A DNA stretch of 64,000 nt, from sequence record OZ413489.1; one strand, written 5' to 3'. Below, one piece after another: positions 2,727 through 20,784 of this stretch (its first letter is position 1; the number at the start of each line of letters is the position of its first letter). Origin of the DNA: a phage. The notes under the pieces are model-generated. The model was not told where the DNA came from. It did not search any database and was given only the letters and a program-made list of their open reading frames with translations. The translations under genes were made by a program, and so were the position numbers.

Positions 2727-3413
2727 ATGGCAGAGATTAAGTCGGATGTTAACCACATCCACACTCTGCCAGATTTTGTTCAGGGAGGTCTTGACTACCT
2801 GCCTGGAGATTTTCTGGCTGAGAAGGTTAATTTGGTCACATTCTTAACCGTGTACCTTAAAAGGTTGGAGGATGTTGATAAGATGCTGGTAGGTTTGGCT
2901 GAAGGAAGATTGCTTAACAATGCCAGCGGAAGATACCTTGACGAAGTTGGTAATCAACTTGGTATTCTTAGGAATGGACTTTCAGATGCTGATTTTCGTG
3001 CCACACTAATTATTCAGCAGGCCGCAGCATCAAGGGGCGGGACTCGCGAAGATGTCATCTCCACCTTGCGACAATTGTTCGGAAGAAACAATTTCGATAC
3101 GTGGAAAGGAGACAACTTCAGGTTTGACATAAATATTAGAAAAACTTGCTTTGACATATTGCAGTCTATCGATCAGATCTTAGATATGCTACCATTGCCT
3201 TGTCATTTGCGTCTTACAGAATCGCAAGGGCAAGCTTTTGGTTTTGAAGGGGACCATACAGCTCTTGGCTTCGGATCAGTGTGGGAAGAAAACCAATTCG
3301 GAGTTGGTGGGCTGGCTACTTTGCTGTATGTTCCTGACGTAAGACCTGATTGGGACACCACAACCATTTATTGTGAAAGTATTACAGTAAACGCAACTAG
3401 ACAGGAGGGTTAA
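2727..3413 (+). CDS. Baseplate/tail protein, gpI-like (putative)
   Basis: 228 aa; tightly coupled to flanking genes (stop/start overlap at 3413); position after the J-like gene. Confidence 0.4.
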   Translation: MAEIKSDVNHIHTLPDFVQGGLDYLPGDFLAEKVNLVTFLTVYLKRLEDVDKMLVGLAEGRLLNNASGRYLDEVGNQLGILRNGLSDADFRATLIIQQAAASRGGTREDVISTLRQLFGRNNFDTWKGDNFRFDINIRKTCFDILQSIDQILDMLPLPCHLRLTESQGQAFGFEGDHTALGFGSVWEENQFGVGGLATLLYVPDVRPDWDTTTIYCESITVNATRQEG

Positions 3414-5485
3414 TGGCAACAGCTATTTTTAAACCTTACCGTGATTACTCTACAATGGCTGCACGGTTTCATTACCGCACAGTTCAGGATACTGCAGTTC
3501 CTGGTAGGGATTATAATCATGTTGAGGGTGATGTAACTATCCCAATTGGGGCAACCAGTATTGAGATCCCAGTGGAAATTGTTGACAAATTACCCAACAG
3601 GTTGCCAAGAAGCTTCTTTATGGAGTTTTCATCAAAATCTCAAGGGGTGATGATTGGAACACAAAGGGCGAAATGTACAATAGTTTCAGATGAGAATCTT
3701 GACAGGATATCTTGGGATACTGTCGAGGAGAGAATGTTTCACCCAAGATATTGGGTTACATCTACCCAGCAGACTGAAAGCACCTGTATTGTTGCAGATA
3801 ATAACTGTTGTATTAACCGTTTAGTGTCAAGAACATATGGAGGTATGGCTGGGTGCATTTGGGAAACAGTTGACAAGTATGACCATTTCGGTATTGGGTT
3901 TGATGATCATTATGAGATGAGAAATACCAAGCTTTGGTTCAGAATGTCAATAACCAACGCCAGCAACTTCTCCACTCCTGAAAAGATGATTATGACTGTA
4001 GACCTTGTTGATGGCACAATCATCTATGTTCCTTTAGCTCAATATGCTGTCAGCATCTCAGAGGATAAGAATGTTGCAGAAATTCATATTGATTTCGAGG
4101 ACTGCGTCGGGATGGACCAGAACAACAATATGATGGGTGTTGATCCTCGACAGGTGAGAAGGATTTTAATACCGCTTATGCCTAAAGATTGGGTAAGCAA
4201 TAGCACAAACCCAAGAACGGAAAATGTAGAGTGTGAGTTGCGCCTAGATCTGCTTCAGCCAGACACAGGCTGGAAAATGATGCAACTTAACAATATTCAG
4301 GTGAAAGAACACGACGTTGGGATCTGCACAGCATATGACGATATGTGGAACGTGTCTCCTTTAAGGGTGTTGAACAATATCAAGCGTCTGGGCTATACCG
4401 GAACCATAAACCATTATGTTGGTATGAGTCATTATTATGACTACACATGGTCAGGAACTCAATGGTCTATAAACAGAACAGGAGCGCTAAACGCTGCAGC
4501 TTATAAATGGCATGATGATTTTATGTACAATGCCAAACGACATAACTTCGACGTTATGCAATCTGTAAGTTTTGAGCTTTTCAGCGATGCCTGCCCGTTG
4601 GAATGGACCCAAAGAGACTGGAACGATAACTACGCTAAAACAGGGTATACACCTTGTAGCTACCTCCTGTCTCCAACCATTGAAGAGGGTATGAATTTCC
4701 TTACTGCAGTATTTAAGAATTTTGCATCAGCCGCTATGAGAAACAACCTGCCAGTGATTATGCAGGTTGGTGAACCGTGGTGGTGGTACAATACCGATAC
4801 TCGTAGACCTTGTATTTATGATTACCCTACAAAGCAGGCGTTTTATGATGAGACAGGTGAGTATGCATTAGATATTGGGACTATTGACGATCCTAAAACT
4901 GGCGGTGTTTACGACAAGTATGTAGCATTTTGTCGTGGTAAGCTTGGCGCTCGTATTGCGGCTATTTCAAAGGCAATAAAGGCACACGCTGCATCAGCTC
5001 AGATGACAGCTCTACTGTTTTTCCCAACCATTATGGAAACCGAGCTTACGCAAAAGCTTAACCTTGCTGACCAATATAAAAAGGAAGCAGGTGCTCTTGA
5101 TTTCTTCTGCACCGAGTGCTACGATTGGGTGATGCAGGGAGGTATTGAAAAGGCAAAAGAGTCTGTAAACATACCTATCGTTAAGTTAGGTTGGCAACCG
5201 TCTGAAATACAATACCTTGCAGGGTTCGTTCCTAGTAAAGAGCTTGCTCCGGTATATGGTTACGACCCAACCAGGAATTACCAAGAATTTTTATGGAGAT
5301 GTATTTGCGGAAACATGGCAACTATAGAGTATAGATATCCTGAGGTAAAACAGTATGTGTGGGCATACCCGCAAGTAATGTCTGACAGCATCACTGTTAC
5401 CGCTAGAGATTCTACCGTGCTTCATATGGGGCAGGTTGCTCTGAAAGGGTATGTAGAAGATGTTGTCCCGCCAGACTTCTCATAA
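3413..5485 (+). CDS. Tail fibre / baseplate structural protein
   Basis: 690 aa ORF, start overlaps upstream stop (ATGG); within tail module; no recognisable enzymatic motif. Confidence 0.55.
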   Translation: MATAIFKPYRDYSTMAARFHYRTVQDTAVPGRDYNHVEGDVTIPIGATSIEIPVEIVDKLPNRLPRSFFMEFSSKSQGVMIGTQRAKCTIVSDENLDRISWDTVEERMFHPRYWVTSTQQTESTCIVADNNCCINRLVSRTYGGMAGCIWETVDKYDHFGIGFDDHYEMRNTKLWFRMSITNASNFSTPEKMIMTVDLVDGTIIYVPLAQYAVSISEDKNVAEIHIDFEDCVGMDQNNNMMGVDPRQVRRILIPLMPKDWVSNSTNPRTENVECELRLDLLQPDTGWKMMQLNNIQVKEHDVGICTAYDDMWNVSPLRVLNNIKRLGYTGTINHYVGMSHYYDYTWSGTQWSINRTGALNAAAYKWHDDFMYNAKRHNFDVMQSVSFELFSDACPLEWTQRDWNDNYAKTGYTPCSYLLSPTIEEGMNFLTAVFKNFASAAMRNNLPVIMQVGEPWWWYNTDTRRPCIYDYPTKQAFYDETGEYALDIGTIDDPKTGGVYDKYVAFCRGKLGARIAAISKAIKAHAASAQMTALLFFPTIMETELTQKLNLADQYKKEAGALDFFCTECYDWVMQGGIEKAKESVNIPIVKLGWQPSEIQYLAGFVPSKELAPVYGYDPTRNYQEFLWRCICGNMATIEYRYPEVKQYVWAYPQVMSDSITVTARDSTVLHMGQVALKGYVEDVVPPDFS

Positions 5486-5497
5486 TCAGGAGATAAA

Positions 5498-6538
5498 ATG
5501 TCAAAACCTAGTTTTCCATTAGAGATTTGGGCAGAGGAGGATCAGGTTCTGCCTAACACCCACAGACAGAACAGGCTACGCCCGATTGATGATTTGTGGA
5601 GAAAAGGTTGGGATCTTGGTCAAAAGCCCTCATGTGAAGAACTTAACTATATTTTCAATATGCTCGGGACTTGGGCAAAATACATCGCTGACGAGCAGAT
5701 CCCCGCTCAAGAAGGCCGTTATCTGGTACGTGATAATAACTTGAGTGATCTTTTGAACATTCCTGTTGCCCGTAGAAACCTTGGGATTATTACTAAGGAA
5801 GAGGCAGACGCCAGGTATGTAAAAGTTACAGGTGATACAATGACAGGCCCATTGGGTTTGCAACGTATCAACTTTAAAGCTGCCGAGTCAGATAAGGCTT
5901 GGATAGAGACAACTATTGGCCCAGATAAGACAACTCTCGACTTTGGGTTAAGTGATAATACCGGGTCGTTTGATGATGGTGGTACATCTACAGTGGATGC
6001 GTTCCGTTGGAGATTCCAGCCAACTCAGCCGGATATTAATCCAGAGTTCACTTTGATGTACCTTAACGCGATCACGGCTAACCGTGCGCTGTTGAAAGTG
6101 GTAGGCAATGTTGAAGTTGTCGATAACATGAGGTGCAATAACCTTACTATCAGCAATACAGCGACATTCACCAACTGTAATGTGGCTAGTCAGTTGACGG
6201 CTGGGTCAGTGTATGTTAATGGTGGTGCAAGTTGTGACAGTATGGTTGTAAGAAGCCAGCACTGTGTTGTCGGTAACAGAAATGTGGTTCGCTCTGTGAA
6301 CGGAGTGACGGCTAACGGTAACGGTGATGTAACGATCACTATCCCGCAGACAGGTGTGCAAGACATCAGAATCGGTGCAAGACTTGTTGACGGCGTTTCC
6401 GAATCTCCAATTCGCAACGGCTACGTTGTCACAGGCTGGCATTTCGGTGACAAAAAAGAGATGCGTGGTTCAACCTACTGGGCAGGACCTTTACAAAAAC
6501 TTGTAAACGGTCAATGGATCACTGTTAATTATGCATAG
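5498..6538 (+). CDS. Tail fibre protein (receptor-binding candidate), paralogue 1
   Basis: 346 aa; homologous over its full length to 7553-8596; shared C-terminus QKLVNGQWITVNYA; GDTMTGPLGLQRI motif common in tail fibres. Confidence 0.7.
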   Translation: MSKPSFPLEIWAEEDQVLPNTHRQNRLRPIDDLWRKGWDLGQKPSCEELNYIFNMLGTWAKYIADEQIPAQEGRYLVRDNNLSDLLNIPVARRNLGIITKEEADARYVKVTGDTMTGPLGLQRINFKAAESDKAWIETTIGPDKTTLDFGLSDNTGSFDDGGTSTVDAFRWRFQPTQPDINPEFTLMYLNAITANRALLKVVGNVEVVDNMRCNNLTISNTATFTNCNVASQLTAGSVYVNGGASCDSMVVRSQHCVVGNRNVVRSVNGVTANGNGDVTITIPQTGVQDIRIGARLVDGVSESPIRNGYVVTGWHFGDKKEMRGSTYWAGPLQKLVNGQWITVNYA

Positions 6539-6552
6539 ATCGGAGGACTAGC

Positions 6553-7137
6553 ATGAAAATACTTCAAGAGTTTAAACTTTACCAACCGGGATCTGGCGAA
6601 TACCACTCCAACAAGGAAACCAAGGAGCTGACCCCTCAAGAGGTTGAGGATTACACCGCATACACTGGGTATTTTTTACGTAATGATGATGGCGATTGGT
6701 ATGTGCAGTCACGAACATTACGACAAGAAAATCCGGGTTGTATCTTCCTACTTGTTGACGAGAAGGGAATTCTTAAGACATCTACAGAAGAACCTGATGC
6801 CTTATGGCCTGCTCCAGGTCTTCGTGTGGTTATCGCCAAAAAAGAAGAGGTACCAGAAAACATTATGCTTCACCACGACGCTTTGCGTTTAGTTGGTGAT
6901 GAATTTGTCACAGATAATGAATTCTTTGTTCAACAGGCAGAGGGTGTCATAGAGACAGAACTTGCTTGGGCTACTGCTAGAATTGGTGCCTATCAAGACA
7001 TGATTGACCTTGAATATGATCTTACTGATGACCAGAAACGTAACATCAGAGATTTGAAAATGTACAGGGTAAAACTTCTTGAAATAGATACATCTAAAGC
7101 CCCTGACATTTTCTTCCCGGAGCGACCTACCCTCTAA
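6553..7137 (+). CDS. Tail fibre assembly chaperone (Tfa-like)
   Basis: 194 aa; C-terminal motif MYRVKLLEIDTSKAPDIFFPERP matches the conserved Tfa C-terminus (YR..L..iD.S.APDI.WP..P). Confidence 0.75.
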   Translation: MKILQEFKLYQPGSGEYHSNKETKELTPQEVEDYTAYTGYFLRNDDGDWYVQSRTLRQENPGCIFLLVDEKGILKTSTEEPDALWPAPGLRVVIAKKEEVPENIMLHHDALRLVGDEFVTDNEFFVQQAEGVIETELAWATARIGAYQDMIDLEYDLTDDQKRNIRDLKMYRVKLLEIDTSKAPDIFFPERPTL

Positions 7138-7148
7138 GAGGAGGTGTT

Positions 7149-7463
7149 GTGGAGTTGGATTTGGCGGCATTGTACGGTATCTGCATGGGTACCGTTGTCC
7201 CGATCTGTGTATGGGCTTTCAACCAGTGGCACACCAAATGGAAAGGCATTTCCAAGAGGTTGGATGAACTGGAGAAAGACCTCATCTTAGTGAAAAACAG
7301 TATGGTTACAAAAGATAAACTTGATTCCGTTATCGAGACCCGGTTAAGCAAGCTAGAGGCCGATATTAACGACCTTAAGCAGGATGTCAGGACAGATGTC
7401 TCCGGCATCCGAGCTGATGTACAAAAGATTTTGCACATGCTCGTAGAGCATAGTAAAAGGTAA
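7149..7463 (+). CDS. Membrane-anchored coiled-coil protein
   Basis: 104 aa; RBS aagaggagg + GTG start; N-terminal hydrophobic helix (LAALYGICMGTVVPICVWAF) then a heptad-like charged region. Confidence 0.45.
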   Translation: MELDLAALYGICMGTVVPICVWAFNQWHTKWKGISKRLDELEKDLILVKNSMVTKDKLDSVIETRLSKLEADINDLKQDVRTDVSGIRADVQKILHMLVEHSKR

Positions 7464-7552
7464 ACAAAGGTCAGAACGGAAAGGACTCCGTTCTTGCATT
7501 TTGTTCTCTAAAGTGTTAAAATAGTCCTAAGGAATTTTCTCAGGAGAACGTG

Positions 7553-8596
7553 ATGACTAAACCAGTTATCCCTCTTGATATTTGGGCCAATCAGGATGTT
7601 GTGCTTGAAAATACGGGAGAGTTGAATAAATCTCAACCAAAAAAAGAAGAGAGATTGAAAGGTTGGGATATGACACAAAGAGTGGCATGTGAAGTTGTTA
7701 ACTTTGAACTCCACATGCTTTCTGCGTGGTTAAAGCATTTAACAGAAGATGTTGTCCCAGGATGGGATAATAGATTCTTAAGGGTCACTAATAATCTAGC
7801 AGACGTTCCAGACAAAGCTGCTGCACGTCAAGTTCTCAATGTATACTCGCCTGAAGAAATGGACGATCTGTATGTTGACAAGTCTGGAGACATAATGACT
7901 CAGACTCAAACTTTAGGCCTTCAAAGAATCGAGTTTGCATCTGCGTCAACAGACAATGCGGCAATATATACCACCATAACTCCAGACAAGACGACGATGG
8001 ATTTCTGGATTATGGACAACATCGGTGGTGCTGACGGCACAGACCTTGATGATCCTTCTCACCAAATAGACGGGTTCCGTTGGAGATTTCAACCTTCTGG
8101 TGGGCAGCCTGTGTTTTCGGCTATGAAGCTCAATGCTATAACTGCCAACCGTGCAAGACTGGCCATCCAAGGAAATCTTGAATGCAACGATGCAAAAAGT
8201 TCCTCTGCAAATGCCAATGCGGTCACGATACCAAGAGCCACTGTTAACGGACAACAATCCTGCGGAATCGCTCAAATAGGTGGAAGAGTTGATTGTAACG
8301 ATGAAACAGTCAGGGGTCAATATGCAACAGTTGGTGGAAGAAACGTGGTCCGCAGGGTAAATGGTAACGGCGCAGACAGTAGTGGTAACCTTACTATCCC
8401 TATGCCCAGCAGAGGGGTTGATGATGTAAGGATAGCAAACCGTTTCAAAACCACCTACAGAGAGTCAAGAGTCTACCCTGGACATGTGATGTGCTCTGGT
8501 AACTACGCTTATAAACACCCTTATCAAGGTGATTACTGGACAGGTGCTATCCAAAAACTTGTAAATGGTCAATGGATCACTATATCTTATGCTTAA
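7553..8596 (+). CDS. Tail fibre protein (receptor-binding candidate), paralogue 2
   Basis: About 347 aa from the ATG at 7553 (RBS caggag); homologous to 5498-6538; C-terminus QKLVNGQWITISYA. Confidence 0.7.
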   Translation: MTKPVIPLDIWANQDVVLENTGELNKSQPKKEERLKGWDMTQRVACEVVNFELHMLSAWLKHLTEDVVPGWDNRFLRVTNNLADVPDKAAARQVLNVYSPEEMDDLYVDKSGDIMTQTQTLGLQRIEFASASTDNAAIYTTITPDKTTMDFWIMDNIGGADGTDLDDPSHQIDGFRWRFQPSGGQPVFSAMKLNAITANRARLAIQGNLECNDAKSSSANANAVTIPRATVNGQQSCGIAQIGGRVDCNDETVRGQYATVGGRNVVRRVNGNGADSSGNLTIPMPSRGVDDVRIANRFKTTYRESRVYPGHVMCSGNYAYKHPYQGDYWTGAIQKLVNGQWITISYA

Positions 8597-8607
8597 AAAG
8601 AGGGTAA

Positions 8608-8874
8608 ATGAAACTAACTCAGTTTTTATGGGGACTGGTTGCGGCATCTGATGACCCTACGAAAGTGTCCCAAACTAAGCTATGGTCGAACATAGGCATG
8701 GCGGTGATGACTGGGGTGTTTATTCATATGGGGTATAATGATACGCTTCCTGAATGGTATGCGTGGATATACGCGCCTTCAGTAGCTTGCCCCCAGCTTA
8801 TTAGCAAATTCATCTCGCTCCGGTGGGGTTGCCAGCACCCTGACCACGTTAAAAACGAAGAGCAAAAAGCTTAA
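8608..8874 (+). CDS. Small membrane protein
   Basis: 88 aa; hydrophobic segment NIGMAVMTGVFIHMGY; RBS agagggtaa. Confidence 0.4.
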   Translation: MKLTQFLWGLVAASDDPTKVSQTKLWSNIGMAVMTGVFIHMGYNDTLPEWYAWIYAPSVACPQLISKFISLRWGCQHPDHVKNEEQKA

Positions 8875-8883
8875 GGAGAAATC

Positions 8884-10629
8884 ATGGCGCAAGACATGAC
8901 AAGCTTTGAGCAGGCGGTAGATCAAGTAATTGTTGATTCTGAACGTTTGCACCTGATTGTCAACGGTAACGCTGTGGATGAAGTTGTCGTAGAGGATGGG
9001 ACCACCATCCCTACGGTACGAAAAGCCATGCTTGACACCCTTTATTTTAAAACGCCACCGATCCCTTGGGCGTATGGTGCATCCACAACAGTTTTTAACC
9101 AGCTGTACGAGTTTAAAGGGGACACAGGCCCTCAGTGGTGGTACGCTCCCGCAGCATCAAAATCTAACCCGGTTAGAATGCCAGCAGATCCTTCACAATC
9201 TCCAAACTGGAGATTATATACCGATTCTGCAGTAATGGCAAAATACTACGCAAAACTTAACAGTCCGAGGTTCGAAGGTGACCCGCGAGTACCTACGCCT
9301 CCAATGGACGACAAATCCGAGTCTATAGCAAACACAGAGTTTGTTGTTGACTATGTGGATAGCATATTTGAAGCCATGGAGGGAATGAAAGTTACTGTAG
9401 GGTCTTTGGTGGTAAAAGGTCTTACAGAACTTGCTAACACTATAGTTGGTGGCACACTCACCTTACATGGGCCTGTTAATGGAGCAGATTCTACTGCACG
9501 CTTCAGGAACCTAATCCTCACGGCAAATACTTCTACACTTACTTTTGCGTGGAGTGATCCTAAGCATGCAGACTGGAGAAGCACAGAGCTGCAACCTCAT
9601 GAAGTGTCCACCCACAGGGTTATAGCTGACACTATAACTTCTGGGAAACCAGTGGCTAATAATAACGATGTGCATTTTGATGGTCTAGGTAATAACTTTT
9701 TTGACTACGTGTACATTCGTGGTAATGCCATGAAGGCAGCAACCGAACCGACATTGCAGGTAGATGGAACCACCAGGGTTAAGAACCTTGAGGTGACAGG
9801 CACTGTTACAGGGATAACCTACTCTGTCGATGGCACCATGATTTACCCTAGCTATATTGAAAGCACGGGGGACGCATTAATAAATGGTGATTTAGAAGTT
9901 GGCGGATCTGTAGTTATTCGAGGTACAGCCTCTATCCAAAACATAGCTCTGAATACCCTAAGAGTCAATGAGCGTGCAACTTTTGAAGGGGAAGGGCTTA
10001 CAGCCAACAAAGGTGTAATTACCGAGCTGACAACCACTACTTTAACTGCAACAACTGCAAACTCTGAAAACTGCAACGTTACCAGAAACTTGCAGGTAAA
10101 TGGAGATGTTAGTTTAAACGCAGCAGGGACGGGCACCACCTACCTTCACAACCTTGAAATATCCGGCACAGTGACTGGGTGGCTGCCAGACTTCTCTAAT
10201 GTCAACTTTGTTTGTAATGGCATTAACTCCAGTGGCAAGATAACCACCTCTCAAGAAATTGAGGCGGGTAAAACCATTACTGCCCCTACTTTCCACGCAG
10301 GAAAGGTAGATTTTGATTTAGAGGAGGTTGACGCGTCCAGTGGGACATGGACACCTAACGGGCAGGCCAGTATGTATGTTGTCCACGCGAAAGGGGATTT
10401 TACAATAGGACAATGGCCTGGTACATCAGCGGAAGATAAACCTTATCCATTCACTGCGGTTATCTATGTCATTCAGGATGCTGTAGGTCACAACGTGACT
10501 TTGCACGATAAGTATGCTATCCTGTCGGCAACGCCTGTTATTAATAACAAGGCTAATAGTGTTACCTTGCTGCAATTAACATATTGTGGTGTTGGTGATA
10601 TCGTAGACGTAGTAATTGCACAACGTTAA
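8884..10629 (+). CDS. Tail fibre / tailspike-like structural protein
   Basis: 581 aa; RBS aaggagaaatc; T/G/N-rich repetitive beta-type composition; terminator immediately downstream. Confidence 0.55.
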   Translation: MAQDMTSFEQAVDQVIVDSERLHLIVNGNAVDEVVVEDGTTIPTVRKAMLDTLYFKTPPIPWAYGASTTVFNQLYEFKGDTGPQWWYAPAASKSNPVRMPADPSQSPNWRLYTDSAVMAKYYAKLNSPRFEGDPRVPTPPMDDKSESIANTEFVVDYVDSIFEAMEGMKVTVGSLVVKGLTELANTIVGGTLTLHGPVNGADSTARFRNLILTANTSTLTFAWSDPKHADWRSTELQPHEVSTHRVIADTITSGKPVANNNDVHFDGLGNNFFDYVYIRGNAMKAATEPTLQVDGTTRVKNLEVTGTVTGITYSVDGTMIYPSYIESTGDALINGDLEVGGSVVIRGTASIQNIALNTLRVNERATFEGEGLTANKGVITELTTTTLTATTANSENCNVTRNLQVNGDVSLNAAGTGTTYLHNLEISGTVTGWLPDFSNVNFVCNGINSSGKITTSQEIEAGKTITAPTFHAGKVDFDLEEVDASSGTWTPNGQASMYVVHAKGDFTIGQWPGTSAEDKPYPFTAVIYVIQDAVGHNVTLHDKYAILSATPVINNKANSVTLLQLTYCGVGDIVDVVIAQR

Positions 10630-13600: not shown

Positions 13601-16316
13601 TGAGACTCTGGGCAATGCCGTTGACCCTTATATCATCATGACTGCACTGAGATCAAACATGGACGGGACATCCATGTCTATGCAAATTCCGGTAACAAAC
13701 GGGTACAAACGTGTTGTGATGATCATTAAGTGCGATCTGATCGGGAAGCAAGTTCTTGCAGAAAACGGGACATCCACACATCCTTTTGAGATCGCTCTGC
13801 ACTATCAGTTTGCTGACTCACCTTTTGCAGGGGATAAGAGAATATCTGATACAGACGCACAGCGTTGTAAGAAAGTATTGTTGGGTGCAGGTTGGTGGTG
13901 GTATGAGTTTGATTTAACAGACAAATTCACCGACACGTCTAAAGTTGTAACAGGACTTCGTCTAGACCTTGGCGAGAACATGCACAAAGCTGTTTGTGAT
14001 GGCACCTATGGTGACCCTACAATATACCTAAAATATGTTTCTTTTGAGCATCCGGAAGATGTTGTCTACGGTCCAAAACTGAGATTGTTTGGCAGCTGGA
14101 TTGCAAAAGATAGGGTAGGCATGGGTAAGAAGGTAAGAGGGCTCTTGGTTGATGCAGGAACAGAAGACATGCTGGTTAATGCAGTGTGGCCTGAATTACC
14201 TGGGACTCAGTGGGACAACTCAGCCAAATCTATAAACTGGTTTAACATTCATAGGGCCATGTGGACCACTAACTGCTACTTGTGGAGAGAGCTTAACGAT
14301 CAGGCCTTTGGATTCAGCGATGGTAGAAGGATGGCGATCATTTGCTGGACAACACTGCAAAGATGTTATGACCATGACTATGAGATTGGGGGCAGGGCAT
14401 GGAAAAATATCAGGGATAGAATCATAACCAATTTTGCAGACGACAACGGTGGTGGAGCACATAACTTTGGCACAAGCCGACTCATCCATTTGAACGGATC
14501 CTCAGCCTACAAGAAAGAAGGTTACTCTGGGTCTATGATCGAGTGGGGTCTGGTGAAAGATGCTCGCGTATTGATGGGCCAGCAACTTGCTGCCGCAATA
14601 GGTCCCAGCGCAGTGCAGTCGGTTAAACCAGCGTGGTTCGATATTCCATTGTGGTCACCCGGAACACCGGGAACTGCTGCAATCAACCCTACCACTGGGG
14701 ATCTAGAAATCTCCTGGGAGGACTTGAAGCAGGTCGGTGGTTGGGACAAAACAGGGTACCAGGTTCAGTGGTGGAGAGCTGATGGATCTTTAGCTGCTGA
14801 TGAGTTTGTTAAGGACAATTTCTACACTATGTCCTCTGCAAAAGCACAGCAATTATTTGGTCAGGCAACTCCGTCAACGATCACCATGTCTATGTGCTGT
14901 AAAGACAACAGGACTGGAGCTTTGGGGCCAAGGGTTGCTAAAGTTTTCTCAGGTATTAAATGGAATCTACCTGTCCAAAGTATTTCATGGAAGCAAATAG
15001 GTGATAACAAGCTGCTGGTTACCCCTGCCTGTCAGTTCAACGCAACTCTTAACGTTGATCCTGCTGTTGCGGCAAACTCAGCTAAAGCTTCTGACTTCTC
15101 TGTGTCTAACACTGCTATGGCAGATGTGAGGAAGATTGACACGCTGAACGCCAGAATTACCTGTAAAAACACTTATGGCACATTCCAGATCATCAACAAC
15201 TTCACAGATGCTGATTCTAAGGTAGTGAGGACAGCAAGCCAGACTTTGAGTTTAGGAACTCTGGCCTATGCGGCCCTGATCACTGAACAGTCGGCAACAC
15301 TCCAAGGAGGTGGTGTAGGCAAGTCCATTACAACACCTGTGTGGAAGCCAAATGAGTGGGTTGTGTTTGATTTGACTGTGGACTTCTCCAGCGATAATAA
15401 CTGGACATGGGTAAGGAATTGTTTGTCACAGTTGATGGGCGGTCCAAGCTCCGTTAGTGATAGTCACGACTCTACTGACCCGAGTGTGTTCCAGGTAGGT
15501 AAAACTCACCCAGAGACTGGAGAAACGTTGCCTGACAGGAAGTATGCTTTGGTTTGCATCTCTTACGGGAAGGCAGATGTCACCTTCTCAGGGACACACA
15601 CTTATAACGGAACCTACAACTTCTCAAGGAAGTATAGTCTCAAAGCAGGGAACATTATAGACGAGGTTGGTGTGCTGTATAATCCGGGCAACGGCATAGG
15701 GATTGTTGGTGGTAAACTGCAGATGCAGGAACCTTCTATTACCCCTTCCAACGTATCCGGGATTAGAAAGACTTGGGAAAGTAGTAATACCAACATTGCA
15801 ACAGTGGATGCCACCACAGGACTGGTAACATTTAAAGCTACTGGGAATGTCACCATAAAGTTTGTAGTTACAGATGATGCAGGGCGCAAAACGTCTTCAA
15901 CATCTTTTACTGTCAAACAGATGGCACCACAGTGGAGAATGTGGATAGGTACAGCAACAAACGGGGCATACCCTAATCCGGCAGGTACTTCTGGTATGAA
16001 GACTTTCTCTACAAGCAAACCGATGGAGTACGGCAGCGGTCCTAAGGTAGGGCAGATGGTGTACTTTGGTGCGTATATTCCTGAAATTATAGGGCTTCCG
16101 AGAAGTCAGCTTCAGTTGCTGTTTGGGGCTGGTGTTGACGATCTTGCCACTTTCGGGTATAGCGACAACATCGAGGCTGCAAGGAGTTCAGGATGGGTAG
16201 GGTTCAGAATGGAGTCTGGAAAGGAAGGCAGGATTCTAGGGACAGCCTCTATAGGTGTTATGTTCCCTGGTGACCAGCAGTATCGTCTAGAAGCCTACGC
16301 AACCTTTTCTCGTTAA
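10680..16316 (+). CDS. Large virion-associated protein with bacterial Ig-like (Big_2-type) repeat
   Basis: 1878 aa single ORF; near the C-terminus a segment (SNVSGIRKTWESSNTNIATVDATTGLVTFKATGNVTIKFVVTDDAGRKT) has the Big_2 pattern; last gene of the late block. Confidence 0.65.
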   Translation: MLPIPLLKLGRHFLDKRGGIKELAVLSYPIDNSDGTSNTVSYVNSLAILFDDGQLNITGYNRFGECRTGDLDTINYPNEAAWNVDHVWRADRAFVIRTFDNKFFYIGCTAGLIGSEAAGGNDVCVREWTPLPEQIVTGLHLDTHPERLVEVMGGVNNTVWVIAAPEADGMLHLYGSGNNTYGSLHVDKSQHATPVKIGETSESPETGPWKNPRINCEVHDNSVIFGGPNGFWIAGYDFLRNNSKNTLVYPAEHVTLDQFKGIPVGETWKGFMCGPNGAIIATERMHKPDDQQLVNVFYGQDVWGDDTWRSLNITYTHEVIMARGYGTSGIFFNNGTKQYRGFSRNLCNDIGAQSANNSPRANFIHYQALATAKYVEQRLPVSWTESVYFQGIHREGFLGTFTVVNGKLWWSGIPRGSFAGSNNLFGGRLNSQGFTEIPENWYKNVPVDSWGIEDIFDVNGVSNVSNIYIGDTVKMKLKPQPEGATFIIDKIELVNAAGTVVTDANYQFSTNWNHGGANEVVVTQYNRNINRRGLYSIKITYHDKHGTGRTCTTRTLNWNTIVPAYPSNGKWHTVGRNKQFHVNDTVYFGLNGTQPAVEGDTSYMVRLHRMDAGSVTYDVTQEIYDQRRATYDNIVKTQALWKFNPNGKGGKMLQVNEQNGTSLTVHEHPDPWPDPGKPHPGARTLKIVSHDAGYFGIRWEATVRYVDGTTNNIGITLGGTSEDNSLKIAYTPRGISIDNMDVVRNGYGDVNVKVTLGEHLGGERIIMYAFDHDPRTNGTYANQAWSYLINAPEPNTKEFYYGMKRDVCKKTGTHDWIAICVKDERTAWDEPVNRWFIGIPTRSDKYVAEYIVCMGGTNLNMCWNEDVNKYSDYDYMRDYSCNLWFNQTTGYPPRQARVNPAIFTDTQVFLTKQANEVQTFKNNYDPNKWFYNCYGAFFWGPGELPGGGSCLNEATYASDYIMGQVKKYKIIPGPETLGNAVDPYIIMTALRSNMDGTSMSMQIPVTNGYKRVVMIIKCDLIGKQVLAENGTSTHPFEIALHYQFADSPFAGDKRISDTDAQRCKKVLLGAGWWWYEFDLTDKFTDTSKVVTGLRLDLGENMHKAVCDGTYGDPTIYLKYVSFEHPEDVVYGPKLRLFGSWIAKDRVGMGKKVRGLLVDAGTEDMLVNAVWPELPGTQWDNSAKSINWFNIHRAMWTTNCYLWRELNDQAFGFSDGRRMAIICWTTLQRCYDHDYEIGGRAWKNIRDRIITNFADDNGGGAHNFGTSRLIHLNGSSAYKKEGYSGSMIEWGLVKDARVLMGQQLAAAIGPSAVQSVKPAWFDIPLWSPGTPGTAAINPTTGDLEISWEDLKQVGGWDKTGYQVQWWRADGSLAADEFVKDNFYTMSSAKAQQLFGQATPSTITMSMCCKDNRTGALGPRVAKVFSGIKWNLPVQSISWKQIGDNKLLVTPACQFNATLNVDPAVAANSAKASDFSVSNTAMADVRKIDTLNARITCKNTYGTFQIINNFTDADSKVVRTASQTLSLGTLAYAALITEQSATLQGGGVGKSITTPVWKPNEWVVFDLTVDFSSDNNWTWVRNCLSQLMGGPSSVSDSHDSTDPSVFQVGKTHPETGETLPDRKYALVCISYGKADVTFSGTHTYNGTYNFSRKYSLKAGNIIDEVGVLYNPGNGIGIVGGKLQMQEPSITPSNVSGIRKTWESSNTNIATVDATTGLVTFKATGNVTIKFVVTDDAGRKTSSTSFTVKQMAPQWRMWIGTATNGAYPNPAGTSGMKTFSTSKPMEYGSGPKVGQMVYFGAYIPEIIGLPRSQLQLLFGAGVDDLATFGYSDNIEAARSSGWVGFRMESGKEGRILGTASIGVMFPGDQQYRLEAYATFSR

Positions 16317-16328
16317 CAAGGGGGTAAA

Positions 16329-16360
16329 TAAAAAGGGGCCAAACGGCCCCTTTCTTTTTA
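16329..16360. terminator. Bidirectional rho-independent terminator
   Basis: aaaaa-ggggcc-aaac-ggcccc-tttcttttta: hairpin flanked by A-tract and T-tract, between convergent genes ending at 16316 (+) and 16364 (-). Confidence 0.75.
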
Positions 16361-16363
16361 TAG

Positions 16364-16564
16364 TTAGTAATACTCCCAACATGCCCCATCTTCAGACGGC
16401 TTGACGCGCTTACCTTTATGGTCAACATAGGTATAGCCACAACCTTCACAAATAACAGGTGCTGCATAACCTTCCTTCCACTGCTTCTCCGTGATCAATC
16501 CTTTCAGATCTCCGCAGTCACGACCAAACAACTCTTCAGAACAGTCTTTACAAAAATCAGCCAT
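16364..16564 (-). CDS. Small zinc-ribbon protein
   Basis: 66 aa with CxxC ... CxxC pairs (CKDC, CEGC). Confidence 0.5.
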   Translation of the reverse strand: MADFCKDCSEELFGRDCGDLKGLITEKQWKEGYAAPVICEGCGYTYVDHKGKRVKPSEDGACWEYY

Positions 16565-16633
16565 CTCTATCAGTCTCCATATTTAACCAATCTATATTAC
16601 ATATTGCCGAAGAAACAGTATTTCATTTCATTA

Positions 16634-16852
16634 TCACAGATCTCCAACAACTTCCCAAATACCCCAGTGAGCATCTATATCCTTGATAAAGTATCTTTCT
16701 CCACGGTTTGTCCACACACCTATCCCAACTTTACCATCTATCCCATTGTATACATCTGCCTCATACTCTTTGCCCGGTGTAAAGTGTACACCCATCATAA
16801 GGGCTGTTATTCCATTAGGATTTTTAAATTTAACAAATTTTACTTTGCTCAT
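16634..16852 (-). CDS. Hypothetical protein
   Basis: 72 aa ORF; adjacent to the next gene (stop/start 1 bp apart). Confidence 0.45.
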   Translation of the reverse strand: MSKVKFVKFKNPNGITALMMGVHFTPGKEYEADVYNGIDGKVGIGVWTNRGERYFIKDIDAHWGIWEVVGDL

Positions 16853-16853
16853 A

Positions 16854-17183
16854 TTACTTAATCCTTGCAGTTACAGTAGCGCTATACCCCATGTAGTTAT
16901 GAGACATAAAGAATGTAAGCCCTTTAAGTTCAGGATTCTTTCTAAGAAATCGTTTCAATTTTCGAATGCAATTAACACCATGATCATAGTTTGAGAAATT
17001 AAATTTAATACCCTGCTCCATCATAGTGCACACTTCTTCATGGGTATGCCATTGTCTATCGTGGTCACAAAACCAGTAACCAATACCTTCTTTTTCTTGG
17101 ATATGCAATCCCCAAAATACTTTATGCATTGGATATTTTGGTTTTCTACCATGATAATGTAGTTTAATATTCACATGTGCCAT
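16854..17183 (-). CDS. Hypothetical protein (His-rich)
   Basis: 109 aa ORF in a co-directional array. Confidence 0.45.
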   Translation of the reverse strand: MAHVNIKLHYHGRKPKYPMHKVFWGLHIQEKEGIGYWFCDHDRQWHTHEEVCTMMEQGIKFNFSNYDHGVNCIRKLKRFLRKNPELKGLTFFMSHNYMGYSATVTARIK

Positions 17184-17351
17184 TTTTTGTTACTCCGTTC
17201 TGTATCTGTGATAATGAGAATAGCAAACTGGGGTGTGTGCTGTCAACAACATTTTTAAGCGTTTTGGGGAAGTTTTTTGAAAGGTGGGTGTAATCACAAG
17301 AGAGGGTGGAGTTATTGAAGGCACAGGCCTCTTTTGAGGCCTTAAAGTCGA

Positions 17352-17732
17352 TTATGACACTTTGACGTAGCGCTCTGACAGAGCTGGAAAGCCAAAAGCA
17401 GTACCTATACTACCGTATGCTACCCACCATTGAAGTTCATCGTGACACCATTTTCCGATCAGGAAGGTGCTGGGGTAGCGGGTCAGTATTTTGGCATAAG
17501 CTTTAGGGTCTGCATCTTCTGGGATAATGATACTTGGAACATCTTTGTTATGGCCACAGCAGCAGTTTAGAGTTTTCAATCCTGCCGCCCATAGACTCAT
17601 GATAGGCTTAGCCATGCACTTATCAAGGCACACACGTTTTTTGCCGTCACGGAGCTTTTTAGGCACATCAACGATAACATTTTGATGCTTGGCACCTTTC
17701 ACTTTCCAATTATAGGATTTACACTTGCACAT
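17352..17732 (-). CDS. Hypothetical Cys-rich protein
   Basis: 126 aa; several Cys clusters (CKC, CLDKC, CCCGHN) suggest metal binding; function not assignable. Confidence 0.45.
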   Translation of the reverse strand: MCKCKSYNWKVKGAKHQNVIVDVPKKLRDGKKRVCLDKCMAKPIMSLWAAGLKTLNCCCGHNKDVPSIIIPEDADPKAYAKILTRYPSTFLIGKWCHDELQWWVAYGSIGTAFGFPALSERYVKVS

Positions 17733-17762
17733 TTAATCAGTCTCCATCTAGAAAGCAATACT

Positions 17763-17933
17763 TTACTTAAAATCTTTGTCACCTATTACGATTGCACGAA
17801 TCCACTCATTGTGATGTTCAATGGCGGTAAGGTGTAACATAATGCAGTGATTGTCATTACCAAACACGGTGCGGTAAGCTTTAGCAGCACCATGATATAA
17901 CTTCCACATCAGGTAATGATATCTTCGCCTCAT
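17763..17933 (-). CDS. Small hypothetical protein (56 aa)
   Basis: Not in the >=60 aa track; ATG overlaps the upstream TGA stop (ATGA coupling) of the HAD gene. Confidence 0.35.
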   Translation of the reverse strand: MRRRYHYLMWKLYHGAAKAYRTVFGNDNHCIMLHLTAIEHHNEWIRAIVIGDKDFK

Positions 17934-18409
17934 GGCTCTTTCTCCGGTTCAGGATCTGGGTAATCTTCAATAATAAAGGGCCATCCGTTCCGCTTAGCCT
18001 CAGACTTGTACTCAATCTCCTTCATTGCAAACTCTAACTGATTTTTAGCCGGAATACATGCCGGAGAATCATCAACCCAGATATCTGGGTAGATATCAAA
18101 CTGCGCCAGGTAGGCTGCCTTCTGAACACCGCCAGTATAAAACACACCAACATCGAGCTCCTTGCGCCAATACTCAATGTCCACATTGTCTTGAGTAATG
18201 AATCGGAAAGTCACAAGGTATACTGTCCACCCCTCCTTCTTCAGGTCCCTGATCAGGCGGGAGAAGATGAAAGGGCTCGCATTAAACGTTCCATCAAAGT
18301 CAATGGCAATGATGTGCGTGCCGTGGCGAGTCTCATATGGATTGCTTGTGGTAAGATTGCTGTAGTTAAAAGGGACCTCTTCCCCGCAGTAGCTGTAGTC
18401 CATATTCAC
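17930..18409 (-). CDS. HAD-superfamily phosphatase (candidate nucleotidase)
   Basis: 159 aa; HAD motif I IAIDFDGTF (DxDGT) near the N-terminus. Confidence 0.65.
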   Translation of the reverse strand: MNMDYSYCGEEVPFNYSNLTTSNPYETRHGTHIIAIDFDGTFNASPFIFSRLIRDLKKEGWTVYLVTFRFITQDNVDIEYWRKELDVGVFYTGGVQKAAYLAQFDIYPDIWVDDSPACIPAKNQLEFAMKEIEYKSEAKRNGWPFIIEDYPDPEPEKEP

Positions 18410-18681
18410 ACCTTCTCGTTGATAAATTTACGGGCGGTTTGGTGAGTTGTTTCTGCTGTCTTCAGAATAATATTAATTTTATCGTCAAGATCATTCATCT
18501 CAGCAGTTAATTCAGGAATCTCTCCGGCATGCATAGTGAAATCATACATAGACATGCCAAGAATCTCATTGATTCGGCGGTTGCATTCTGCAGCACGCTG
18601 GTTCATTTTCCAAGCTAACACCAGAGCCTCTTGCGTAGCCTCCAGTGCAAAGTCTAATACGTCAGCTTCTTCTTTCGTCAT
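18406..18681 (-). CDS. Hypothetical protein (helical)
   Basis: 91 aa ORF, stop overlaps the next start. Confidence 0.45.
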   Translation of the reverse strand: MTKEEADVLDFALEATQEALVLAWKMNQRAAECNRRINEILGMSMYDFTMHAGEIPELTAEMNDLDDKINIILKTAETTHQTARKFINEKV

Positions 18682-18736
18682 CTCAGTCTCTCTTGTTGTA
18701 TTGTTGGTAGGTGCATGAACACCTTATATCTCACTT

Positions 18737-19303
18737 TTATTCAAACTGCAATAGTAAGTCCACCACCGCGCTAGGTCTGTCAACAAATTCCCCAGGTCCA
18801 CATGCCCACAGAGGGTATCCGTCTACATACCGCCAAATCCAACCTGCGGTGTGGAGTTCGAGCAGGGCAGTGCCGTCCTTACTGTCAACCACTCTTTCCC
18901 ACAGTGTCGGGCAGCGAAGCTTGAGGATCGGATCCCCTCCCTTATACCCATCCATGTAGATACCCATTGCAAAGTTCAGCATCATCTTTTTGTGCACTGA
19001 TCTTTTACTGAGGGTACTCATCACTTCCTCTTTGTGAATGTTTGTAAGCTTCTCCTTGGCTACCCGCAGATCGTTGCAACCATTGTTCAGCAGATCTTCC
19101 AGACACTTGATCCGAAGGTCGTGAATGTCTTTGTCGTGTACCGTTGGCACAGGGTCGTAGCGGTATAGCACTGTTGATACAAGGTTGCTCGGGTGTGGGT
19201 CTGACAGCAACCCATAACCCCAATACTCTTCTGTATCTGAAAGGACAAGACACCCAATGTCTCTGTCAAGCTTTCCTGTGTTGTAAGCCACATTGACCGC
19301 CAT
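18737..19303 (-). CDS. Hypothetical protein
   Basis: 188 aa ORF in the co-directional array. Confidence 0.5.
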   Translation of the reverse strand: MAVNVAYNTGKLDRDIGCLVLSDTEEYWGYGLLSDPHPSNLVSTVLYRYDPVPTVHDKDIHDLRIKCLEDLLNNGCNDLRVAKEKLTNIHKEEVMSTLSKRSVHKKMMLNFAMGIYMDGYKGGDPILKLRCPTLWERVVDSKDGTALLELHTAGWIWRYVDGYPLWACGPGEFVDRPSAVVDLLLQFE

Positions 19304-19305
19304 GA

Positions 19306-19551
19306 CTATAGCTCCACTAGCAAAGTGCTTTCAAAGTGCCGTTCATGCAAACCGTTGTAAGGGACCACTTCTACAACGCCATCACGGACATATGGGGCCA
19401 TCATGGTGGTATAATCTCCAAACGGGTTGGTATTGTCACTAACCACAACCACCTTCTGCCCTTCCTTGGCAGAGTGCCAAATAGATCTGCACTTCATCAG
19501 GTGTTCGAGAGCTCCAGGTAAAATTTTGTTACGTTCTTTACGGGTCTTCAT
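19306..19551 (-). CDS. Hypothetical protein
   Basis: 81 aa ORF, tightly packed. Confidence 0.45.
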   Translation of the reverse strand: MKTRKERNKILPGALEHLMKCRSIWHSAKEGQKVVVVSDNTNPFGDYTTMMAPYVRDGVVEVVPYNGLHERHFESTLLVEL

Positions 19552-19997
19552 AACAGATATAGCTCCTTATGAAAGTGGTCTTTTAATTTCTCACTGAGAA
19601 ACTTCTTGATACCTTCCTCTAAAGTGTTTTCGATGTAGTCCAGCTTAACTGCTTCGATGGACATATCATAGATTGCCAGCTCTAAGCTGTCAAGTCCCAT
19701 CATAGCATGAACCATAAGATTTTCATCTTCAGATACATTCAGGGGACTTCCTATAACATCTGGAGGCAGAATAGTTTCCCAATTATTCTGGGTGGTAGTT
19801 CTCCCGCCATCTACTTTACGGCGCAGTTCGAATGTGTTCTTAGTGTAGAACACTTCATAAGAAACGATACGACTGTCACTCTCATAATAAACGAAGTTCA
19901 GGTAGGAGCCTAGCCGCAGTCGGCAAACTTCCACCCCAAACCATTGTTTCTTATAAGAATTCAGGCTAATGCTGTCGCATTCACGTTTGCTCAACAC
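19548..19997 (-). CDS. Hypothetical protein
   Basis: 149 aa ORF; start overlaps the downstream gene (ATGA). Confidence 0.5.
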   Translation of the reverse strand: MLSKRECDSISLNSYKKQWFGVEVCRLRLGSYLNFVYYESDSRIVSYEVFYTKNTFELRRKVDGGRTTTQNNWETILPPDVIGSPLNVSEDENLMVHAMMGLDSLELAIYDMSIEAVKLDYIENTLEEGIKKFLSEKLKDHFHKELYLL

Positions 19998-20013
19998 GGC
20001 TATCTCCTTTTTG

Positions 20014-20247
20014 TTAATCTTCGTAAATCAGGATTTCTGCTTTAGGTTTTCGTGCTTTCAGATCCAGCTCTATCCAATGCACCATGGCTGTTTCAAGAAA
20101 AACAGCCTGGATGCATCCGTCCTCAGCGTGCCCTACCAACATAACAAGATCTTCACCTTCGTCATCTGCATCACGAACATACAGAATCTCTCCAGATTCA
20201 AAGTCTTTCACAACCTGATTGCTGGATAATTTACGAATTTTTGCCAT
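20014..20247 (-). CDS. Hypothetical small protein
   Basis: 77 aa ORF. Confidence 0.45.
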   Translation of the reverse strand: MAKIRKLSSNQVVKDFESGEILYVRDADDEGEDLVMLVGHAEDGCIQAVFLETAMVHWIELDLKARKPKAEILIYED

Positions 20248-20248
20248 A

Positions 20249-20512
20249 TCAGAAACCCTCTAAAAAGCTCTTGTAGAAAACAATCTCAGTATCCACACCA
20301 GTCACAATCTTGTCGTTCCTGATTTCATCAGTAAGATAGGTGTCAAAACGCAGAACCTGTGTGGTATTGTCGCACATCCACTCAGCTGTGACCATGGCGA
20401 AAATCTTAGCATCCTCATTATCTGGTGTAAATGTTACCACCTCACCACATTTAAATTTTTCGATAGGTTGCGTGTTAGCTTTCGGTTCTGCAATAGTGAT
20501 TTTCGTGGTCAT
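20249..20512 (-). CDS. Hypothetical small protein
   Basis: 87 aa ORF, adjacent to neighbours. Confidence 0.45.
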   Translation of the reverse strand: MTTKITIAEPKANTQPIEKFKCGEVVTFTPDNEDAKIFAMVTAEWMCDNTTQVLRFDTYLTDEIRNDKIVTGVDTEIVFYKSFLEGF

Positions 20513-20769
20513 TACTCTTCCTCCATAGTTTCACCAAATACTTCGATACGAGCATCGAGCTCTGTTGCTTTCAGCTCCCCAACAAAATCTTTTAGTTCTT
20601 TCTCGTCCAGATCGTAAGCCCACACACAAGAAGAACATGCAGATTTCACAATCAGCAGCGTAGATACACGGCCTGACTCTGTGATCATGCTCACAATGGT
20701 TCCCACAGGGAACGTGTTGATAGCTTTTTTAACTGGGCGTTCAGATTTGATTACTACTTCTGTTGCCAT
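20512..20769 (-). CDS. Hypothetical small protein
   Basis: 85 aa ORF. Confidence 0.45.
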   Translation of the reverse strand: MATEVVIKSERPVKKAINTFPVGTIVSMITESGRVSTLLIVKSACSSCVWAYDLDEKELKDFVGELKATELDARIEVFGETMEEE

Positions 20770-20784
20770 AAATAACGTCCTCTC

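Follow-up and report, generated by a model that had tools for sequence, protein, structure and literature searches.

Two paralogous short tail fibre genes around one Tfa chaperone gene in a Vequintavirus phage: comparison of anchors, tips and shared ends

The short tail fibre locus

We analysed a pair of paralogous short tail fibre (STF) genes, here STF1 and STF2, which lie around a single tail fibre chaperone (Tfa) gene in a 64-kilobase (kb) stretch of phage DNA (sequence record OZ413489.1; the whole stretch is called the window below). The window belongs to a Vequintavirus (rV5-like) phage and the locus is at positions 5498-8596. Megablast with positions 5000-9000 matched 117 phage records, all of them rV5-like phages of the genus Vequintavirus; 114 covered at least 80% of the query and 111 were 95-99.5% identical to it. 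The best match was Escherichia phage HeinrichReichert (Bas58), with 99.5% DNA identity over 4 kb, and the rV5 variant rV5_ev146 was 99.0% identical to the window in the same search. Gene order and gene lengths were those of rV5 and of the BASEL Vequintavirus phages, and the Bas58 annotation and the rV5 open reading frame (ORF) numbers agreed. The genes of the locus, with lengths in amino acids (aa), are:

5498-6538, plus strand: STF1, short tail fibre, 346 aa, directly upstream of Tfa; ortholog of rV5 gp33 (ORF 33), 'short tail fiber protein' in Bas58.
6553-7137, plus strand: Tfa chaperone, 194 aa; ortholog of rV5 gp32 (ORF 32), 'tail fiber chaperone' in Bas58.
7149-7463, plus strand: gp31 ortholog, 104 aa, with a GTG start, a membrane helix and a helical tail; rV5 ORF 31, 'hypothetical protein' in Bas58.
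7553-8596, plus strand: STF2, second short tail fibre, 347 aa counted from ATG; ortholog of rV5 gp30 (ORF 30), 'short tail fiber protein' in Bas58.

In the ORF listing the STF2 frame extends upstream to a GTG at 7550. An earlier note on this DNA, made from the sequence alone, had proposed two paralogous fibres with one Tfa between them, and this was borne out and agrees with the published annotation. The homology that the note had claimed throughout the two proteins was confirmed by BLASTP (42% identity over the full length, E 7e-93), at a level well outside what chance would give. Both fibres fell into PHROG 4465 (E 2e-171 for STF1 and E 2.9e-165 for STF2), and a Pfam search of STF1 and STF2 gave no family for either. 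The middle protein was identified as Tfa by Pfam Caudo_TAP (PF02413, residues 121-192, E 9e-12, 45.7 bits against a cut-off of 22.1) and by PHROG 136 (E 2e-36). Its gene starts 15 nucleotides (nt) past the STF1 stop, while the gene downstream of STF2 encodes an 88-aa membrane protein. In tblastn each rV5-like record listed had one Tfa place (250 places in 248 records overall).

The short tail fibre locus of rV5-like E. coli phages has been published before, and the one studied here does not itself differ from that of rV5 and the BASEL Vequintavirus phages; the pair, the lone chaperone and the link to Mu are not new. Kropinski et al. (2013, PMC3606486) described rV5 gp30 (347 aa) and gp33 as proteins of similar size that share 42.3% identity and resemble short tail fibres. 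Two paralogous short tail fibre proteins with a chaperone were reported for Vequintavirinae sensu stricto by Maffei et al. (2021, PMC8594841, S5D Fig), who found the locus homologous to the phi92-like locus and ultimately to Mu GpS and GpU, and saw no considerable allelic variation in the paralogs. The idea that the rV5 fibre pair serves two chemotypes of lipopolysaccharide (LPS) is also in print (2013/2021: PMC3606486, PMC8594841). The replacement of a 157-aa gene, the split histories of anchor and tip, the gene-conversion islands and the sister lineages with homogenised tips, all described below, were not found in the literature searched. These additions are incremental and of moderate interest to phage-fibre specialists.

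Divergence and exchange between the paralogs

Residues 1-108 of STF1 matched residues 1-111 of the phiTE short tail fibre (9cuy_c, E 1.4e-19) and residues 1-83 of STF2 matched the same fibre (E 1.5e-8). Both fibres further matched the N-terminus of PHROG 12846 (E 2.3e-19 for STF1, 3.1e-11 for STF2). In phiTE, residues 3-92 of the short fibre make up the joint by which it is attached to the baseplate wedge. At the other end, residues 286-343 of STF1 matched residues 440-501 of Mu tail fibre protein S (5yvq_A; phmmer, E 2e-6), a region that includes QKNINGTWYNV. We also obtained an AlphaFold2 (AF2) model of the STF1 monomer from a 26-sequence alignment (predicted local distance difference test (pLDDT) 61, predicted template modelling score 0.30), which was used for rough secondary structure and for one Foldseek search; the sole significant match of this low-confidence model was 5yvq_A (E 1.1e-6). 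By these comparisons STF1 and STF2 are both Mu-GpS-type fibres, and the N-terminal domain of each is a homolog of the joint that anchors the phiTE short fibre to the baseplate. STF2 is counted in this type because of its 42% full-length identity to STF1, despite having no 5YVQ match of its own. The features inside the two fibre genes are:

5498-5821, plus strand: N-terminal domain of STF1, residues 1-108, putative baseplate anchor, from the match to the phiTE short tail fibre 9cuy_c.
5996-6021, plus strand: FRWRFQP identity island (codons D-A-FRWRFQP), STF1 copy; direct repeat D2, partner 8069-8094.
6431-6475, plus strand: STF1 tip loop TGWHFGDKKEMRGST, residues 312-326, family-standard, consensus GW.FGNKKELRG.
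6494-6523, plus strand: 3' motif of 30 nt (QKLVNGQWIT), STF1 copy; part of the 62-nt direct repeat D1, partner 8552-8581.
8069-8094, plus strand: FRWRFQP identity island, STF2 copy; direct repeat D2, partner 5996-6021.
8492-8533, plus strand: STF2-specific tip loop CSGNYAYKHPYQGD, residues 314-327, in place of the family-standard loop, from alignments.
8552-8581, plus strand: 3' motif of 30 nt (QKLVNGQWIT), STF2 copy; direct repeat D1, partner 6494-6523.

Identity between STF1 and STF2 peaked at 57% in residues 113-205 and at 75-86% over the final 14-16 residues. STF1 ends in exactly QKLVNGQWITVNYA and STF2 in exactly QKLVNGQWITISYA, so the near-identical ends had been read correctly. The statement that the proteins are most divergent in the middle held in part: the minimum of identity was at residues 206-255 (19-25%, with indels), but identity was also low at the tip (residues 291-332, about 29%) and at residues ~46-90 (25-30%). 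The two genes in the window were 49% identical in nucleotides overall, with a longest exact run of 15 nt (30 nt in rV5). Over residues 1-70, STF1 was 59-66% identical to single-copy orthologs and only 40% identical to STF2. Paralog lengths were almost equal in all five two-fibre lineages (346 vs 347-354 aa), while single-copy orthologs ranged from 323 to 412 aa.

The tip loop of STF1 is the one conserved in Av-05, NINP13076, PaulScherrer and P0031, and in the AF2 model it sits between strands 309-315 and 326-336 (local pLDDT about 68-75). The STF1 tip (residues 291-330) was 52-58% identical to those of Av-05, NINP13076 and the phi92-like PaulScherrer. STF2 keeps the tip scaffold, with GW.FG.KKE.RG replaced by SGNYAYKHPYQG; the two tips differ in this loop of 14-15 residues, which is invariant across rV5-like genomes. 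We observed no variable position in the STF2 loop among 8 rV5-clade genomes.

Protein searches and contig look-ups gave four uncultured lineages with the same two-fibre layout (L010, L008, L022 and L023), and an IMG/VR scan with STF2 returned only four near-identical loci. L010 is ~78-89% identical to the window in the proteins of the locus, and its STF2 loop, in this ~20% diverged lineage, has an identical SGNYAYKHPYQGD (C314 is L there). The other three are called clade B, where STF1 is ~73%, STF2 ~46% and Tfa ~45% identical to the window (measured for L008). In trees of residues 1-112 from the five lineages, the STF1 sequences (91% bootstrap) and the STF2 sequences (96%) were each monophyletic. 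Since the anchors of STF1 and STF2 form separate clades, the duplication predates the split of the rV5-like phages and three of the uncultured lineages. The tips (residues 291-332) gave other trees, with the STF2 tips of clade B inside the STF1 group (99%) and those of rV5 and L010 on a separate long branch. The anchors of clade B were as different between the paralogs as in the window (37-40% identity). The oldest and most consistent difference between the paralogs is thus the N-terminal anchor, not the tip, and the distinct tip is a feature of the rV5 and L010 branch only. The terminal residues are VNYA and ISYA in rV5 and L010, and VQTL in clade B (IQTL in STF1 of L022).

Two islands of nucleotide identity are common to the paralogs, namely the FRWRFQP island (D2: 26 nt, 85% identity, spacing 2073) and the 3' motif, whose two copies are 2,058 bp apart, and the repeat search reported both independently. 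The peptide QKLVNGQWIT at the shared end is a family-wide motif, conserved also in Mu GpS and the phiTE short fibre, and not special to the duplication. Its 30 nt were identical between the paralogs at 29/30 positions in the window, at 30/30 in rV5, Bas58 and others, and at 29/30 in L010. The codons CTT, GTA and CAA are used in both rV5-clade copies, and CTG, GTC and CAG in both L010 copies. Where the residues were identical between the paralogs, the same codon was found at 8 of the 9 informative motif sites, against 32% at upstream sites (binomial P about 7e-4 in each lineage, background 0.32 taken from these upstream sites). The first Arg codon of FRWRFQP is likewise CGT in both rV5-clade paralogs and AGA in both L010 paralogs.

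In L023 the paralogs share an exact run of 110 nt over codons 289-325, versus ~50-55% nucleotide identity in their N-terminal and middle segments. Identical tip residues use the same codon at 32/36 sites in L023, 15/32 in L008 and 22/37 in L022. The L023 repeat lies at 2285-2394 and 4380-4489 of that contig and spans the tip loops; it is a recent gene-conversion tract, and its synonymous states look STF2-type, which suggests the direction from STF2 to STF1. Because synonymous sites co-vary between the paralogs by lineage and L023 carries the exact tract, the patterns are best explained by gene conversion, in short tracts in the window locus and in whole-tip tracts in clade B. The effect of paralog exchange seen in these alignments is homogenisation, not diversification. 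Therefore the proposal of the earlier note, that the duplicated ends could support recombinational tip swapping, stands only in its first half: the ends recombine, as the motif co-variation and the 110-nt tract indicate, but the outcome homogenises, and 116 cultured genomes keep their tips.

We did not observe tip swapping, chimeras or intermediates among 116-117 cultured rV5-like genomes. Identity was 95% or more for STF1 (116 records) and 94.5% or more for STF2 (117 records). Among the 8 rV5-clade genomes there were 6 variable residues in STF1 and 19 in STF2, with 101 vs 105 variable nucleotide sites. Amino-acid polymorphism at equal nucleotide diversity is about 3 times higher in STF2 than in STF1, and it includes L336F in the conserved motif, in FV3-like genomes.

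Exchange of another kind was found in relatives with one fibre. The fibres of Av-05 (L003) and the uncultured L021 were 97-100% identical to about residue 270, 83% over the next 30 residues and 23-37% thereafter. Their Tfa proteins were 29% identical, while flanking genes, including the next three, were 96-100% identical. The tip and the whole Tfa gene have thus been replaced cleanly, as one cassette, between otherwise 96-100% identical phages. The upstream breakpoint lies at the conserved GRNIVRSVNG..ADGNGN junction and the downstream breakpoint beyond Tfa. Another uncultured clade had three tip types on near-identical shafts. Further, tip identity tracked identity of the Tfa N-domain (Spearman rho 0.72) and not that of the first 200 fibre residues (rho 0.24), in pairwise comparisons of eight phages in which the pairs are not independent. 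In published structures the variable Tfa N-domain binds the fibre tip and, in Mu, remains on the virion. This domain was 19-40% identical among relatives outside L010 and 73% in the closely related L010. All two-fibre lineages have a Tfa (194-208 aa) with an additional N-terminal segment of ~17-25 residues (about residues 13-33 in the window), which is absent from the Tfa of Av-05, NINP13076, PaulScherrer and GAP31.

Gene neighbourhood and predicted transcription

The features around and between the genes of the locus are:

3413-5485: lateral tail fibre with glycosidase and deacetylase domains, rV5 ORF 34, from the Bas58 annotation.
7473-7494, plus strand: terminator-like hairpin, an 8-bp stem followed by T-rich TGCATTTTGT, downstream of gp31; from the terminator scan, a consensus match only.
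7501-7537, plus strand: predicted late promoter of STF2, rV5 P030, with the core TGTTAAAATA at 7514-7523; from sequence identity to the published P030.
8608-8874: 88-aa membrane protein, rV5 ORF 29, 'hypothetical protein' in Bas58.

In Bas58 two further lateral fibre proteins (rV5 ORFs 28, 27) follow the last of these genes. We compared this layout with single-fibre relatives (Av-05 (L003), GAP31, NINP13076 and the uncultured L021 and L024), all of which have the same gene order: fibre, Tfa, 104-aa protein, 157-aa multi-pass membrane protein, 87-89-aa membrane protein and a fibre of ~584-602 aa. In the window, the 104-aa and 88-aa proteins are homologous to those of the relatives, and STF2 occupies the slot of the 157-aa membrane-protein gene (PF26221 / PHROG 7451). 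That gene was found in 107 phage records, with no rV5-like record in the organism, host or listed-row summaries.

Of the spacers in the cluster, only the one directly before STF2 is of any size. The window sequence there is identical to P030, one of the late promoters that Kropinski et al. (2013, PMC3606486) list in Table S4C. L010 and L008 retain the motif TG(T/C)TAAAATA in the corresponding spacer. A sigma-70 promoter scan gave nothing on the plus strand upstream of STF2, and the prediction is made because of the published late-promoter motif, not because of that scan. STF2 is therefore predicted to form its own late transcription unit.

The 104-aa protein had been described as small, membrane-anchored and coiled-coil. 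The membrane anchor was confirmed as one hydrophobic helix at residues ~5-23 (19-residue Kyte-Doolittle maximum 1.91), and gp31 is listed as a membrane protein with one transmembrane domain by Kropinski et al. (2013, PMC3606486). Matches to coiled-coil-type families were only weak. The protein belongs to PHROG 5345, a family of unknown function, and aligns with homologs in Av-05, GAP31, NINP13076 and PaulScherrer; it follows Tfa also in the single-fibre relatives. Small membrane proteins of 104 aa (PHROG 5345), 157 aa (PF26221/PHROG 7451) and 87-89 aa (PHROG 1322) form a conserved set after Tfa across Vequintavirinae (in Av-05, L003 6138-7201). We dropped the reading of these proteins as a lysis cassette, as rV5 encodes its lysin (gp89) and putative holin (gp129) at other places in the genome and no function is assigned to the PHROG families.

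Upstream of STF1, the gene at 3413-5485 encodes the N-terminal and TIM-barrel domains of an N4-type 'non-contractile tail sheath protein' together with a Calx-beta domain, which agrees with the published NGR-glycan-binding fibre common to phage N4. At least 16 'Campylobacter phage' records (MG0656xx, host Campylobacter jejuni) were ~99% identical to the E. coli rV5-like locus. These records look mislabelled, or look like E. coli phages carried in Campylobacter phage stocks. GC and AT skew change sign at ~16000-24000 and 58000-64000 of the window, which fits minus-strand gene blocks such as the Bas58 annotation shows downstream of its large fibre gene.

Explanations of the pair and comparison with known systems

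According to published screens, the LPS outer core's first glucose (GlcI) is the terminal receptor of both the two-fibre Vequintavirus and the one-fibre Justusliebigvirus (Maffei et al. 2021, PMC8594841), and waaG and waaC mutants cannot be infected at all. The STF1 tip probably carries the shared GlcI specificity, as judged from this common receptor, and it is plausible that the STF2 loop gives a changed specificity. The dual receptor-binding set suggested by the earlier note is plausible in this phage, given the invariant and distinct STF2 loop. The like tips in sister lineages and the single common receptor weaken dual receptors as the reason for the duplication.

We give a little more credence than doubt to an explanation in which two homotrimers share one Tfa, dock by different anchors as two sets of short fibres and have their ends kept in step. 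STF1 and STF2 would each form their own homotrimer, and the single Tfa would start the folding of both from the common C-terminal hairpin. The different anchors would dock them at different places of the baseplate, giving two short-fibre sets. STF1 would keep the family-standard tip, binding GlcI, and the variant loop of STF2 may change or widen the recognition of core sugars. The near-identical ends would be a family-wide element for folding and chaperone contact, kept in step by short-tract gene conversion and by selection, since both fibres must fit one Tfa. A shared Tfa would also disfavour the import of a foreign cassette of tip plus Tfa. That no tip exchange was seen in cultured rV5-like phages may be because tip and Tfa normally travel together and Tfa is shared.

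Several observations weigh against this explanation. The paralog tips of clade B (L008, L022, L023) are 86-95% identical, versus 29% in the window, and since they are alike, a receptor difference is not a general property of the pair. Host mutants without GlcI fully block all tested Vequintavirus, and therefore no independent role of a second receptor is visible on K-12. The need of STF2 for gp32, the separate homotrimers and the docking sites we infer from sequence comparison, and the 'chaperone lock' is likewise drawn from co-variation seen in just a few lineages. By itself STF2 had no match to Mu GpS (5YVQ) in the PDB sequence search, and Tfa gave no meaningful PDB sequence match, including Mu GpU. 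The structure of STF1 is a low-confidence monomer model (pLDDT 61), in which loop positions are approximate. Further, the 19 proteins of the rV5 mass spectrometry (MS) table (Table S5, Additional file 5, PMC3606486) include none of 346, 347 or 194 aa.

This last point bears on the suggestion that only one paralog is a virion fibre, the other being non-structural or dispensable, e.g. a spare copy or decoy. Neither paralog is in the MS table, and in the rV5 proteomics supplement we found no peptides, molecular weights or lengths of gp30, gp32 or gp33; the annotation table gives these three no 'MS evidence' flag (PMC3606486). The text of the same paper names gp30, 32 and 33 among the detected proteins, while gp34 is in the MS table with 10.3% coverage (Kropinski et al. 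2013, PMC3606486). Therefore the published MS table does not settle whether virions contain both fibres. All cultured genomes carry the two genes intact, with purifying selection on both (6 and 19 variable residues on ~100 variable nucleotides each), four further lineages keep the two as well, and STF2 has a predicted late promoter, like structural genes. A homologous single fibre with the same anchor type (W70_112) is abundant in virions of phage W70 (659 spectra). Against these findings, a pair with one virion fibre has hardly any probability in our estimate.

It is unlikely, though still a serious account, that both fibres bind the same receptor (GlcI), the diverged anchor adding a second ring or position that raises avidity or changes trigger geometry, and the STF2 loop being functionally minor. 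The combination of like tips (86-95%) and different anchors (37-40%) in L008, L022 and L023 speaks for it, as do the almost equal paralog lengths in five lineages (346 vs 347-354 aa, against 323-412 aa in single-copy fibres) and the mapping of Vequintavirus and Justusliebigvirus to one terminal receptor, with a full block in waaG and waaC mutants. The STF2 loop itself points the other way: it replaces the cross-genus GW.FGNKKELRG and is invariant over ~20% protein divergence, as expected of a selected, distinct surface. The whole STF2 tip is moreover only 22-24% identical to the STF2 (S2) tips of clade B and 29% to STF1. A mixed fibre, in which gp33 and gp30 co-assemble as a heterotrimer nucleating at the identical C-terminal hairpin with the single Tfa, would suit the common motif, the one chaperone, the nearly equal lengths in five lineages and the similarity of residues 113-205, the most similar long stretch (57%). 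We consider it highly improbable, as residues 206-255 (19-25% identical, with indels) are difficult to fit into a regular threefold shaft, the anchors are strongly different and the genes are in different predicted transcription units. Solved fibres of this family, Mu GpS and the phiTE STF, are homotrimers.

The FRWRFQP island and the 3' motif might also be kept as recombination handles for swapping the distal half or tip between paralogs or co-infecting phages, with a change of host range. The two islands do flank the variable distal part, conversion tracts between paralogs occur, and single-fibre relatives exchange tips horizontally at a conserved GRNVVR.VNG junction. We nevertheless regard such handles as improbable. 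No swapped or chimeric allele of either paralog was present in 116 cultured genomes, and each observed paralog exchange makes the copies more alike. The downstream breakpoint of the relatives' horizontal swaps lies beyond Tfa, not at the 3' motif, where a crossover would exchange four codons only. The longest exact run (15 nt, or 30 nt in rV5) does not exceed the shortest length with which homologous recombination is usually efficient.

Beyond the explanation by two homotrimers with one Tfa, we tentatively propose, with some doubt, a wider view of the locus. The shared Tfa would tie the tips together, and the anchors would be the functional split, as two docking positions. The two islands would leave the copies capable of recombination, so that tips are either homogenised repeatedly, as in clade B with the 110-nt tract of L023, or held in a fixed two-tip state that blocks horizontal swaps, as in rV5.

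These points have some practical weight. The rV5-like phages are common candidates for E. coli therapy and biocontrol, and it is by their short fibres that they finally and irreversibly contact the cell. If one chaperone constrains both tips, a replacement tip needs to fit the resident Tfa, or Tfa and both tips need to be replaced together. Paralogs that differ first in their anchors pose a question for cryo-electron microscopy of the Vequintavirus baseplate, namely whether there are two docking sites. The gene-conversion tracts offer a small and clear case of concerted evolution within a lytic phage genome.

Among known systems, T4 gp12 is comparable in the name of short tail fibre and in the presumed role of binding the LPS core irreversibly once the lateral fibres have engaged. 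HHpred similarity of the rV5 fibres to gp12 was reported by Kropinski et al. (2013, PMC3606486). Among PDB sequence matches at E up to 1 we found no gp12 chain for either fibre. Unlike the fibres of the window, which have no Pfam or PDB sequence match to it, gp12 uses the chaperone gp57A and not Tfa.

The phiTE STF (PDB 9CUY/9MJN) and the PHROG 12846 fibres (W70_112) come from the same phage subfamily and are homologous in the N-terminal ~100 residues. Their gene neighbourhood is also in common, including the PF26221 and PF26208/PF26209 proteins. The phiTE fibre is unlike those of the window in being 554 aa long, with a long coiled coil and immunoglobulin-like distal domains; it is thought to bind flagella and occurs once per genome.

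Modules of tip and Tfa are reportedly exchanged among P2, Mu, lambda-like and T-even phages. The present locus and its relatives resemble these systems in variable tips between conserved segments and in the joint movement of tip and chaperone (Av-05 vs L021). Exchange in rV5-like phages differs in that it was seen between resident paralogs only and homogenises them, with no horizontal replacement in 116 genomes.

A Mu-like invertible switch was rejected, as both genes are on the plus strand and no inverted repeats flank them; no search for an invertase gene was made. The inverted-repeat search gave one 20-nt pair of 80% complementarity, which is chance-like. Mu GpS/GpU (PDB 5YVQ) is alike in the homologous C-terminal receptor-binding domain, in a Caudo_TAP chaperone gene beside the fibre gene and in two alternative fibre specificities in one genome. 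The G segment of Mu joins one fibre N-terminus to two invertible C-terminal cassettes (S/U and S'/U'), each with its own Tfa and only one expressed at a time. In contrast, the locus described here has two complete genes in direct orientation with one Tfa for both, and from the gene layout they are presumably co-expressed.

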